From Methanobacteriota archaeon (GTDB lineage: Archaea > Halobacteriota > Syntropharchaeia > JACQPP01), in contig JACQPP010000075.1 of NCBI GenBank assembly GCA_016207465.1, positions 1 to 35,317 on the forward strand: a DNA stretch of 35,317 nt. Direction: 5' to 3'. The position numbers and the translations under genes were made by a program. Shown piece after piece: positions 11,668 through 31,172 of the stretch (positions are counted from its first letter, which is position 1; each line of letters starts with the position of its first letter). Below the pieces are notes generated by a model. It was not told the origin of the DNA. It saw nothing but the letters and a program-made list of their open reading frames with translations, and did not search any database.

Positions 11668-11815
11668 ATCCCTTTTCTTTCTTTTGCCACGCCCGCCTTC
11701 GGCGGTCTAACGGAGGGCTCGCGTTGTGCTTCGCAAAACGCGAAGCCCTCCTGCAAAAGAAAGAAAAGCGATTTTATTCGGAAAAGAAAGAGAATGGTCG
11801 GATGCGTTCAGAACG
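11666..11815 (+). repeat. Structured ~150-bp repeat, copy 1
   Basis: Matches the reverse complement of 26876-27021; 16-bp outer stem cttttctttcttttgc/gcaaaagaaagaaaag enclosing two hairpins. Confidence 0.9.
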
Positions 11816-25925: not shown

Positions 25926-26864
25926 TTACATTCCCGCGAACTTCCGCAGGGCATCCTCGCAGGTGTATCGGGGCTCCCAGCCGAGTTCCCGCCGGGCCTT
26001 CGCGCTGCTGACCACGATGCCGTATTTGCAGTATCCGAGCCACCCCGGGTGGACCCCGGAGAGCCGGAGCCTCCAGAGGAGCCGGTTGAACCCCGCCACG
26101 AGGGGGTAGGGGACCCGGATGCTCTTCTTCTCCAGGATGGGACCGATGCGGCTCCACCGGACCGGGGGCTCGGCGGCGATGTTGAAGGCTCCCCCAGGGC
26201 TCCGCCGGAGGGCCAGGTGGAAGGCCCCGGCCACATCCTCGTCCCACGTGAACTGCACCTCCGGGTCATACCCCATGAACACCGGGCTGCGCCGGAGGGT
26301 GAGGAGACGGCCGAAGGGATTGTTGATGGTCGGCCCCACGAAGAGGCTGGGCCGCAGCAGGGTCACCTTCACCCCCGGGTTCGCCTCGCGGAACCGGACG
26401 ATATGCTCCTCCACCCGGGCCTTGGTCTCGCTGTAATAGAACCCCCGGTTGGGCCGCAGGGCACACTCCTCGGTGATGAGCCGGGGGTTGTCGGGCCAGT
26501 TCCCGTAGGCCGCGATAGAACTCGCGTGGACAATGTGGCCCACCCCTGCCCGGGCCGCGCACTCGAACACATTGACAGAGCCCCCGACATTGATGTGGTG
26601 GATGGCCCGGTCATTCTGCATCCGGATGGCCCCGGGGGCCCGCGCCACCACGAAGGCCAGATGGACCACTGCATCACACCCTCGCAGGGACCCCTCGATG
26701 GCCGGCTCCCGCACATCCCCCGCGATGAACCGCAGTTTCGGGTGCTCCCCCCGGGGCGGCTGGAGGTCAATGCCCACCACCTCCTCCACCCCCGGGTCCC
26801 CCTCCAGTAGCCGCAGCAGGATGCCACCCAGATACCCCGAGACCCCCGTGACCGCCACCCTCAT
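25926..26864 (-). CDS. NAD-dependent epimerase/dehydratase (extended SDR)
   Basis: VTGVSGYLG, HLAF, INVGGS, SSIAAYG, YSETK. Confidence 0.9.
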   Translation of the reverse strand: MRVAVTGVSGYLGGILLRLLEGDPGVEEVVGIDLQPPRGEHPKLRFIAGDVREPAIEGSLRGCDAVVHLAFVVARAPGAIRMQNDRAIHHINVGGSVNVFECAARAGVGHIVHASSIAAYGNWPDNPRLITEECALRPNRGFYYSETKARVEEHIVRFREANPGVKVTLLRPSLFVGPTINNPFGRLLTLRRSPVFMGYDPEVQFTWDEDVAGAFHLALRRSPGGAFNIAAEPPVRWSRIGPILEKKSIRVPYPLVAGFNRLLWRLRLSGVHPGWLGYCKYGIVVSSAKARRELGWEPRYTCEDALRKFAGM

Positions 26865-26875
26865 GCTATCACCAT

Positions 26876-27021
26876 CGTTCTGAACGCATCAAGCCATTTT
26901 CTTTCTTTTCCGAATGAAATCGCTTTTCTTTCTTTTGCAGCAGCCGCCGACCCCTGTGGGTCGGCGGCTGCGTTAGCCCGGCCTGCAGGGCCGGGCGTGG
27001 CAAAAGAAAGAAAAGGGATTT
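26876..27021 (-). repeat. Structured ~146-bp repeat, copy 2
   Basis: Reverse complement matches 11666-11815 in flanks and linkers; inner hairpins differ in sequence but remain paired. Confidence 0.9.
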
Positions 27022-27250
27022 GAGCCTGGCGCGTAACTCCGGGGTTCATCGCTGGCCTTCGGCCTTCTTCCCGCCGGTAACCCTCGCGCCAGGCCTGTGC
27101 CGCTCCGGGGTATTTCCGCACTCATTGTCTGCCATGTGGCATCTTGTGCGAAGACCGTTCCGGGCGGCTGTGGCCCCCATCTTGCATCCGGGTTTGGTCA
27201 CAGCGGGGCTTGGCCCCGGCTCCCCCCGGTCCTCAATGGGGGCAATGAGA
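27022..27250 (-). ncRNA. Candidate structured non-coding RNA or long 5' leader, family unknown
   Basis: Dense nested stems; minus-strand TATAAATA at 27267-27274 just upstream; followed by a U-tract. Strand is not certain. Confidence 0.55.
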
Positions 27251-27282
27251 TAATACGAGGGCCCCCTATTTATACTCCGCCA

Positions 27283-27942
27283 ATGACCCGGCCTCCGGTG
27301 GAACGCCGTGAATTCGACTACGGCGGGCTCCGCCTGGTCCTCTACGACGGGGTCTACGTCCCCAGCGACGACACGATGCTGCTGGCGGAGACCCTCCGCG
27401 TCCCTCCGGGAGCCCGAGTTCTGGACATGTGCACCGGCTCCGGCCTCCTCGGACTCCTCGCCGCCCGCCGTGGGGCCCGCCGGGTGGTGCTGGCGGACGA
27501 CGACCCCCTCGCCCTCCGGTGCGCCAGTGAGAACGCCGAGAGGAACGGCCTCAAGAACGCGGAGGTGGTGCGGAGCGACCTCTTCCAGAAGGTCCAGGGC
27601 CGGTTCGACCTCATCCTCTTCAATCCCCCATACCTCCCCCAGGAGAACAGCGAGGACCTCTACCTCTACGACGAGAAGTTCGAGAAATGGCGCAACATCG
27701 GAATCCACGCCTGGGACGGAGGCCCCGACGGAAGACGGCTGATAGACCGCTTCCTCCGGGAATACCCCCCCCACCTCGCCCCCGGGGGACGCATCCACAT
27801 GATAGGCTCCAGCCTCAGCGACTACGAGAAGACACGACGCATACTCAAGGCCCAGGGGATGGAGGTCAAGATACTGGGACGGCAGAGGTTCTTCTTCGAG
27901 GAGATTGTGGCGATGGGGGCGCGGCGGGGGAGAGGACGGTAG
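27283..27942 (+). CDS. HemK2/MTQ2-type protein N5-glutamine methyltransferase
   Basis: VYVPSDDTMLL, VLDMCTGSG, SDLF, FDLILFNPPY, GGPDGR..IDRFL, FFEE. Confidence 0.9.
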   Translation: MTRPPVERREFDYGGLRLVLYDGVYVPSDDTMLLAETLRVPPGARVLDMCTGSGLLGLLAARRGARRVVLADDDPLALRCASENAERNGLKNAEVVRSDLFQKVQGRFDLILFNPPYLPQENSEDLYLYDEKFEKWRNIGIHAWDGGPDGRRLIDRFLREYPPHLAPGGRIHMIGSSLSDYEKTRRILKAQGMEVKILGRQRFFFEEIVAMGARRGRGR

Positions 27943-30773: not shown

Positions 30774-31172
30774 GGGGAGAGTGGAAGGGCCGCCGCCGGT
30801 CCCGCCCGCAAGGGCAGGGCCGAGGAAAGTCCCCCCACCACCCACATCGGGTTCGCCCGGTGTGGAAAAGGCGGGCCCCGAGATGGGGCGCGGTGAGAAC
30901 CGCGGCTCTGGCACAGAAACGATACGGTCCCCCTTGTGGGCGATGACACCGCAAGGTTGAGGTCGAGGGAGGGCCGGTGAAACGGCGAAACCCCGCCGGT
31001 GCAAGTCGCTCCGACGACGCCCAGACCAATGCGGCCAGGCCCGAACCCTCCGCCCCCGCCGCCGCGTGCGGCAGGGACCCGGCGCAAGCCGGGGGAGAAC
31101 CGGAGACCCCTGAACCTTAAACGGGGACGGGGTGAGGGCCGAACAGAAGGGGGCTTACTCTCCACACTCCCC
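30774..31172 (+). ncRNA. rnpB: Archaeal RNase P RNA
   Basis: GAGGAAAGTCCCCCCACC (CR-I), ACAGAAAC, GGTGAAACGGC, GGTGCAAG, AACAGAAGGGGGCTTA (CR-V); P1 ggggagagtgga/tccacactcccc. Confidence 0.96.

Follow-up and report, generated by a model that had tools for sequence, protein, structure and literature searches.

Introduction

In Pyrococcus, HgcG/Pab40 is a guide sRNA of the box H/ACA type that carries three H/ACA motifs, and its counterparts are Pf7 in P. furiosus, Pho40, and Afu4 in A. fulgidus (Muller et al. 2008, PMC2377435). In the descriptor given by Muller et al., an H/ACA motif has a lower stem (7 bp or more), then an internal loop (the pocket) and an upper stem, and an ANA trinucleotide follows. 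In the P. abyssi experiments of the same source, guides were active only if the ANA was 14–15 nt from the target and the upper stem had 5–6 bp.

The targets of this family lie in 23S rRNA. Motif 1 of Pab40 guides the site Pab 2588, and Pab 2678, the equivalent of E. coli 2586, follows 90 nt downstream of it (PMC2377435). Motif 2 of Pf7 and Afu4 and a haloarchaeal homologue have been assigned to the equivalent of H. marismortui 2621, that is, E. coli 2586 (PMC2377435, PMC2584109). Motif 3 of Pab40 and Afu4 makes the helix-69 pseudouridine, with Pab 2016 corresponding to H. marismortui 1956 and to E. coli 1915 (PMC2377435, PMC2584109). The haloarchaeal hairpins HP1/HP2 (Grosjean et al. 2008, PMC2584109) show that the family evolves by loss or separation of hairpins.

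Here, we explored a candidate RNA in a window of 35,317 nucleotides, by which we mean the whole stretch of DNA that was analysed. The candidate sits in a 418-nt gap between two genes. On one side is a NAD-dependent epimerase (SDR) gene at 25926-26864 on the minus strand, followed by a thymidylate kinase gene; on the other side, a HemK-like gene (methyltransferase-small-domain) starts on the plus strand, its ATG being at 27283. The genome of the window is a 1.50-Mb assembly of 155 contigs, which is 73.7% complete and has a G+C content of 67.7%. We conclude, with a probability of roughly 90%, that the RNA at about 27246-27002 on the minus strand is an archaeal box H/ACA guide sRNA of about 230–245 nt, an orthologue of HgcG/Pab40, Pf7 and Afu4 that guides three 23S sites.

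Results and Discussion

Match to a Known RNA Family

The original prediction had described a novel RNA and had suggested cmscan against Rfam as a check. The check was the right one. In E-value mode, it returned RF00064 (HgcG/Pab40) at 27016-27287 on the minus strand, covering model positions 1-276 of 276, with a score of 49.2 bits. The E-value is 1.9e-12 when 551 nt are searched and 1.2e-10 for the whole window. This was the sole strong match in the genome of the window. The alignment spans the upstream TATA, the three lower stems, the K-turn motifs of GAUGA type and the ACA boxes, and the upstream UAUAAA of the Rfam model itself aligns at the TATA box TATAAATA.

The curated gathering threshold of RF00064 is 77 bits, and the score found here does not reach it. 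At gathering thresholds, a scan of the whole window found RNase P alone, and the H/ACA match needs the E-value mode. We read the sub-threshold score as that of a remote orthologue which is beyond the range of the seed sequences; these we take to come from Thermococcales. The claim of novelty had to be given up, since the original prediction itself had named a hit to a known family as a result that would overturn it, and the match covers the full model even though it stays under the gathering score.

The RNase P RNA, of the archaeal type, lies at 30777-31169 on the plus strand (104.7 bits, gathering score 84); its length of 393 nt, compared with a model of 288 positions, implies insertions. ARAGORN detected no tRNA in the window. 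A scan for promoters and terminators of bacterial type gave nothing, as is expected for an archaeon. Among public sequencing runs, 12 DNA runs hold the stretch wholly or partly, and no RNA run is among them.

Fold, Strand and Anatomy

The minus strand of 27005-27245 folds with a minimum free energy (MFE) of −117 kcal/mol (z = −4.15), and 0 of 200 shuffled sequences fold equally well. For the plus strand, the z-score is −1.29 and 21 of the 200 shuffles fold equally well. Together with the RF00064 match, this difference makes the minus strand clearly the RNA strand, which the original prediction had left unresolved. The MFE structure of the minus strand consists of exactly three consecutive hairpins. 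In this fold and in the Rfam alignment, three units show the elements of the H/ACA descriptor, with lower stems of 8, 9 (one mismatch) and 10–11 bp and with the boxes ACA, ACA and AAA. The features are as follows, with the evidence for the hairpins in brackets.

27267-27274 (read 27274-27267), minus: TATA box TATAAATA, centred about 27 nt upstream of where hairpin 1 begins
27169-27243, minus: H/ACA hairpin 1 (Rfam alignment, MFE fold, covariation, target scan)
27243-27236 with 27180-27173, minus: hairpin 1 lower stem, GCCCCCAU/AUGGGGGC
27235-27230 and 27187-27181, minus: hairpin 1 pocket strands, UGAGGA and AUGCAAG
27229-27225 with 27192-27188, minus: hairpin 1 upper stem, CCGGG/CCCGG, plus GG/CC across an AAA bulge
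27222-27221 opposite 27202-27198, minus: hairpin 1 K-turn-like element, GA opposite UGU-GA (motif only)
27171-27169, minus: hairpin 1 ACA box
27096-27168, minus: H/ACA hairpin 2, with a large pocket (Rfam alignment, MFE fold, covariation, target pairing)
27168-27160 with 27108-27099, minus: hairpin 2 lower stem, GCCGCCCGG/CCGGAGCGGC, with one mismatch or bulge
27159-27151, minus: hairpin 2 5' guide, AACGGUCUU
27150-27146 with 27121-27117, minus: hairpin 2 upper stem, CGCAC/GUGCG
27125-27122, minus: hairpin 2 K-turn-like element, AAU-GA (motif only)
27116-27107, minus: hairpin 2 3' guide region (the long 3' pocket strand), GAAAUACCCC
27098-27096, minus: hairpin 2 ACA box
27019-27095, minus: H/ACA hairpin 3 (Rfam alignment, MFE fold, target scan)
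27095-27085 with 27033-27023, minus: hairpin 3 lower stem, GGCCUGGCGCG/CGCGCCAGGCU
27084-27078, minus: hairpin 3 5' guide, AGGGUUA (plus G27085)
27077-27071 with 27044-27039, minus: hairpin 3 upper stem, CCGG(C)GG/CCCCGG
27053-27045, minus: hairpin 3 K-turn-like element, AGC-GA-UGAA, in GCGAUGAA (motif only)
27038-27034, minus: hairpin 3 3' guide, AGUUA (plus C27033)
27021-27019, minus: hairpin 3 3' box AAA, with UC before it
27002-27018, minus: UCCC and then UUUUCUUUCUUUU, the likely transcription stop of the sRNA

The pairings listed in the original prediction were all recovered as complementarities, and the three-hairpin fold gives several of them a different meaning. The stem 27024-27033/27085-27094 (10/10) is the lower stem of hairpin 3, and the three small palindromes at 27205-27217, 27054-27064 and 27130-27141 are hairpin tips. 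What had been called a competing 8-bp helix, 27173-27180/27236-27243 (8/8), is the lower stem of hairpin 1, and the supposed pseudoknot of gtgcg with cgcac, 27146-27150/27117-27121 (5/5), is the ordinary upper stem of hairpin 2. The long-range pairing 27121-27127/27243-27249 (7/7) and the pairing 27168-27175/27196-27203 (7/8) lie outside both the MFE fold and the family structure.

The three putative K-turns were assigned by a pattern which we take to be the standard one. They fit it, as motifs only, with GA/UGU-GA in hairpin 1, AA/AAU-GA in hairpin 2 and AA/AGC-GA in hairpin 3; two of the three would carry A and not G at one sheared position. The motif (G/A)AUGA is kept in the homologues.

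The ends of the RNA are marked on both sides. AT-rich boxes are found in the homologues at a distance similar to that of TATAAATA, and transcription is predicted to start at about 27243-27247, about 25 nt downstream of this box. After hairpin 3, the minus strand carries the U-tract CCCTTTTCTTTCTTTTG (also written CCCUUUUCUUUCUUUUG) at 27017-27001. The earlier view of a separate structured RNA gene, which has a TATA box of its own and would end in a U-tract terminator, is supported.

The TATA box of the sRNA is only 9 nt from the ATG of the HemK-like gene on the opposite strand. The plus strand carries a second AT-rich box, GATAATAC, at about 27248-27255; it falls within the 5' flank of the sRNA and precedes that ATG by about 28 nt. 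This arrangement of boxes within 27246-27285 suggests interleaved divergent promoters and a leaderless HemK-like mRNA.

Predicted Targets in 23S rRNA

We sought 16S and 23S genes in the assembly of the window and found none there; the targets were therefore read on the 23S of other genomes. The 16S and 23S sequences were those of two other species of the same family (G001 and G002), with G007 in addition. They were scanned for bipartite pairing around an unpaired U-N, and the numbering is that of G001 aligned to E. coli K-12 rrlH. A top match below is the pairing that scored highest over all the 16S and 23S sequences of related genomes.

Hairpin 1: G001 23S U2579, cuugc-UA-ccucgaug, 5+8 pairs, E. 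coli 2496, top match
Hairpin 2: G001 23S U2668, gggu-UU-agaccgu, 4+7 pairs, E. coli 2585 (the next U, U2669, is 2586), not the top match
Hairpin 3: G001 23S U2000, guaac-UA-uaacccuc, 5+8 pairs, all 13 Watson-Crick, E. coli 1915, top match

The predicted target of hairpin 1 is thus the 23S U equivalent to E. coli 2496 in the peptidyl-transferase ring, and that of hairpin 3 is U1915 in the loop of helix 69. For hairpin 2, the probable target is either U2585 or U2586 (E. coli numbering).

With shuffled guide strings, a pairing score as high as the one observed came up in 8 of 60 trials for hairpin 1, 30 of 60 for hairpin 2 and 14 of 60 for hairpin 3. Pairing scores alone therefore prove nothing, and we did not use them as evidence. 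The case for the targets rests instead on their coincidence with the published sites of the family, on the co-variation of guide and target, and on the geometry.

As to the first, position 2579 of the G001 23S sits 90 nt upstream of 2669, and this spacing is identical to that of Pab 2588 and 2678 (Muller et al.); the equivalence with Pab 2588 rests on the spacing and not on a direct alignment with P. abyssi rRNA. As to the second, the 23S of family f1 reads CCUCGA and its guide GAGG (G001 and G002, each with its own rRNA), and four genomes of family f4 read CUUCGA and GAAG. In full, the G001 and G002 23S have ...GCUUGC-UA-CCUCGAUG and their own guides ...CGAGG-A, compared with ...GUUUGC-UA-CUUCGAUG and ...CGAAG-A in the four f4 genomes. 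As read from these sequences, a C-to-U change in the target is matched by a G-to-A change in the guide between families f1 and f4. A second matched change would concern the 3' guide, which reads GCAAG in the window and GCAAAC in f4; it holds only on the condition that the 23S of the window's genome is the same as that of G001, and the guide of G001 itself is without this second pair.

Hairpin 2 is the weakest of the three. In the window, its ACGGUCU is paired as far as A2587, with U2585 as the favoured unpaired U, while U2586 is indicated by the f4 guides (AACC plus ACGGUC) and by the literature. Pairing in this region is poorer still in G001 and G002, with 4+5 pairs in G001 against 4+7 in the window.

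The way in which the RNA would work follows the known H/ACA particle, in which L7Ae sits on the K-turn of each hairpin and Cbf5-Nop10(-Gar1) on the lower stem and ANA box. Transcription would begin about 25 nt downstream of TATAAATA and stop in the U-tract, and the product would fold into the three consecutive hairpins, each followed by its box (ACA, ACA, AAA). By analogy, L7Ae and Cbf5-Nop10(-Gar1) may bind each hairpin in the same places. The two pocket strands would then pair with the rRNA on either side of the unpaired U-N, and Cbf5 would isomerise the U to pseudouridine. The reading makes testable predictions, namely three pseudouridines at the peptidyl-transferase centre and in helix 69.

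Conservation and Covariation

Among 41 relatives, RF00064 gave full-length, sub-threshold matches in 13, the genome of the window included. Thirteen sequences went into a covariance model of hairpin 1, which detected the RNA in 66 of the 79 genomes of the class, nearly always as one copy per genome. By family, the matches were 3/3 in f1 (which includes the window), 4/4 in f2, 59/66 in f4, 0/3 in f3, 0/1 in f5 and 0/2 in f6. Three hairpins are present in f1 (the window, G001 and G002) and in f2, and f4 has hairpins 1 and 2 only.

The covariation of the stems was counted on alignments fitted to the model (A4 and A5; 38 sequences, 34 of them distinct), since MAFFT alignments (A1–A3) put some upper stems out of register. 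For hairpin 1, 9 of 14 pairs vary on both sides, and 90.5% of the cells are paired, against 42–64% for slid pairings; for hairpin 2, 6 of 12 pairs vary on both sides, and 97.5% of the cells are paired, against 25–47%. In both cases, 0 of 500 shuffles reached the observed value. Because the alignments were fitted to the structure and the sequences are related, these numbers are supportive and not a formal proof. Hairpin 3 is seen in seven sequences, in which the lower stems differ and the pairing is retained.

The loci of family f4 (L006, L007, L009-L015 and L078-L107) are without the helix-69 hairpin, in contrast to L001, L004, L005 and L008. The loop of helix 69 in 23S reads GUAACUCUGACCCUC in f4 and GUAACUAUAACCCUC in f1. 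In the 66 f4 genomes, we sought a stand-alone helix-69 guide with the strict pattern GAGGGTCA N25-55 GTTAC N8-12 ACA, which gave 2 matches compared with 10 for a reversed control; this is weak negative evidence about a separate f4 guide.

Variation is also found within f1. In G002 (locus L118, G002:C16:26640-27060, minus strand), hairpin 2 is followed by UGCAGAG and not by ACA; the closest ANA, AGA, comes 3 nt later. An apical insertion of about 60 nt is present in hairpin 3 of the same genome. Judging from these sequences, variation of box and apex seems to be common in the genomes of family f1.

Box Geometry and Protein Partners

The distance from the first target-paired nucleotide of the 3' guide to the box is 14, 13 and 16 nt for hairpins 1, 2 and 3, although the counting convention behind the published 14–15 nt may differ. 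Measured from the upper stem, the box is 16, 18 and 17 nt away. The upper stems have 5 bp (plus 2 across the bulge), 5 bp, and 6 bp with a bulge, respectively.

It could be argued that the RNA is a decaying or partly disabled H/ACA copy, in which hairpin 3 has no ANA in the canonical position, hairpin 2 is a weak match, and fewer than three modifications are guided. The 3' box region reads UCAAA, and its AAA lies 16 nt from the first paired guide nucleotide. After the extra UC, the box is AAA, while G001 and G002 have AUA at 14 nt; in relatives, AUA or ACA comes one to two positions before this, at a place where UCA/CAA is found in the window. Hairpin 2 in f1 pairs only 4+7 (window) or 4+5 (G001) around 2585/2586, and Cbf5 was not seen in the assembly.

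Against this reading, the relatives of f2 also show 16 nt in the hairpin 3 register of the window, and ANA variants such as AUA occur in relatives. The CAAAUCCCUUUUC of the window aligns with the CAUAUCCCUUUUC of G002 through the downstream UCCCUUUUC that they share, which places AAA on the AUA of G002, and by this alignment AAA is probably the homologous box of hairpin 3. The search for Cbf5 gave only weak PUA-domain matches in an assembly that is just 74% complete, whereas Cbf5 is present in five of five relatives tested. All stems are intact, the fold is strong, and the gene is kept as a single copy in 66 of the 79 genomes of the class. We therefore regard decay as improbable and keep to a working H/ACA guide.

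Nop10 (72.5 bits) and the L7Ae family (89.4 bits) were detected in the genome of the window, both above their cut-offs. The Pfam model of Gar1 gave nothing in three of three f1 genomes. In G001 (C8:37014-37901) and G002 (C22:17629-18516), the open frames that contain the Cbf5 match (model positions 27-322) are 648 and 655 aa long, about twice the 341–346 aa found in families f2 and f4; these long frames could be a fusion or include an upstream open frame.

Alternative Readings of the Locus

The RNA lies upstream of the epimerase and thymidylate kinase genes on the same strand, and it had been proposed as a switchable leader, that is, a cis-acting leader or riboswitch for these genes. This is very unlikely. 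The U-tract and a 150-nt repeat cassette stand between the RNA and the start of the epimerase. Of 37 other loci that carry the RNA, none has the epimerase next to it, and just one (G001) has the HemK-like methyltransferase as a neighbour, there on the other side. Moreover, the family that the RNA matches is one of trans-acting guides.

A protein-sequestering RNA that uses CCCGGA/GGA repeats, by analogy to CsrB, can be dismissed almost entirely: the four copies of CCCGGA reported on the minus strand are indeed within 27005-27245 (4 in 241 nt, where the rate over the window, 1.36 per kb per strand, would give about 0.3), but they stand at stem-pocket junctions of GC-rich helices and not in loops, none of the 12 homologues examined contains the motif, and CsrA is a bacterial protein.

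A Dispersed Repeat Cassette at the 3' End

The repeat cassette starts at the 3' end of the sRNA. Copies in the window lie at 26897-27021 and 11668-11767, and about 25–30 further loci are found in the genome (for example, G000 C8:3640-3740, C52:2890-3055 and C77:2610-2755). The UCCC-UUUUCUUUCUUUU at 27002-27018 is the conserved end of the cassette, which reaches to about 26897.

The copies have a T-tract, variable GC hairpins and two A-tracts in a fixed layout. In order, a cassette has (A/G)AATCCC-TTTTCTTTCTTTT, then variable GC-rich hairpins joined by GCTAACG, and then AAAAGAAAGAAAA, GCGATTTCATTCGG, AAAAGAAAGAAAA and finally ..GATGCGTTCAGA. The hairpin stems vary between copies with the pairing retained. 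Short forms without hairpins exist, as does a second subfamily with the spacer GGTCTCTGGACACCCC. The cassette is specific to the genome of the window, where 62 copies of the 13-mer TTTTCTTTCTTTT (either strand) are present, compared with 0–1 in each of five relatives.

The position of the copies was also recorded. Nine of the 22 ATCCC-T13 ends stand directly after in-frame stop codons of long ORFs, and six of the 22 abut tRNA genes, five of these at the tRNA 5' end and on the other strand. At six other junctions of cassette and GC-rich non-coding sequence, an Rfam scan in E-value mode found a partial tRNA only. From its sequence, the cassette looks like a terminator or a terminator-promoter module, possibly mobile.

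These observations can be joined to those on the sRNA in one tentative reading, which we consider rather unlikely as a whole. In it, the cassette end AAATCCC-TTTTCTTTCTTTT would have taken over the 3' end of the sRNA and would now supply both the displaced ANA box (AAA, at 16 nt) and the terminator of hairpin 3, the A-tracts would be the promoter of the next gene, and the one-nucleotide change in the hairpin 2 guide might shift the modification from U2586 to U2585, which is universally conserved. If this is true, a repeated and possibly mobile terminator-promoter module became a functional part of an H/ACA guide RNA.

Comparison with Known Systems

The RNA of the window agrees with HgcG/Pab40, Pf7 and Afu4 in its three hairpin-ANA units, which follow in identical order. 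As in the Pab40 family, the pocket of motif 1 has one unpaired nucleotide on each side at the top and then GAGG... and GCxA..., motif 2 has a large pocket, and the predicted 23S target sites are the equivalents of Pab 2588, Pab 2678 and Pab 2016. It differs in its score (49.2 bits compared with the threshold of 77) and in its host, which is of a different, uncultured lineage of high G+C content. Its 3' box is AAA at 16 nt, and not ACA at 14–15 nt, and its hairpin 2 guide prefers the U2585 register by one extra U-A pair.

Hairpin 3 and the U-tract also gave a weak full-length match to HgcE/Pab105 (RF00060; 29.3 bits, E = 2.5e-4). This likeness reflects generic H/ACA features, namely the K-turn GAUGA, the lower stem, the AAA box and the U-rich tail. 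The score is well under the cut-off of 50, and the guides and the predicted target are those of Pab40 motif 3.

The result removes a false lead to a novel RNA class and annotates a gene that standard Rfam thresholds miss. It also extends the three-hairpin guide of Pab40, Pf7 and Afu4 to an uncultured archaeal class, in which it is nearly universal (66/79) and modular. A specialist in archaeal RNA modification would find none of this surprising; the neighbouring repeat cassette is more unusual.

Grosjean et al. (2008, PMC2584109) have described the haloarchaeal HP1/HP2 as homologues of Pf7 stems II and III, and as predicted guides for the E. coli-equivalent positions 2586 and 1915/1917. Haloarchaea are without a homologue of stem I and have a long spacer between the hairpins, whereas the RNA of the window has all three hairpins directly adjacent to each other. 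Within the class of the window, it is stem III that was lost, by f4, unlike the loss of stem I in haloarchaea.
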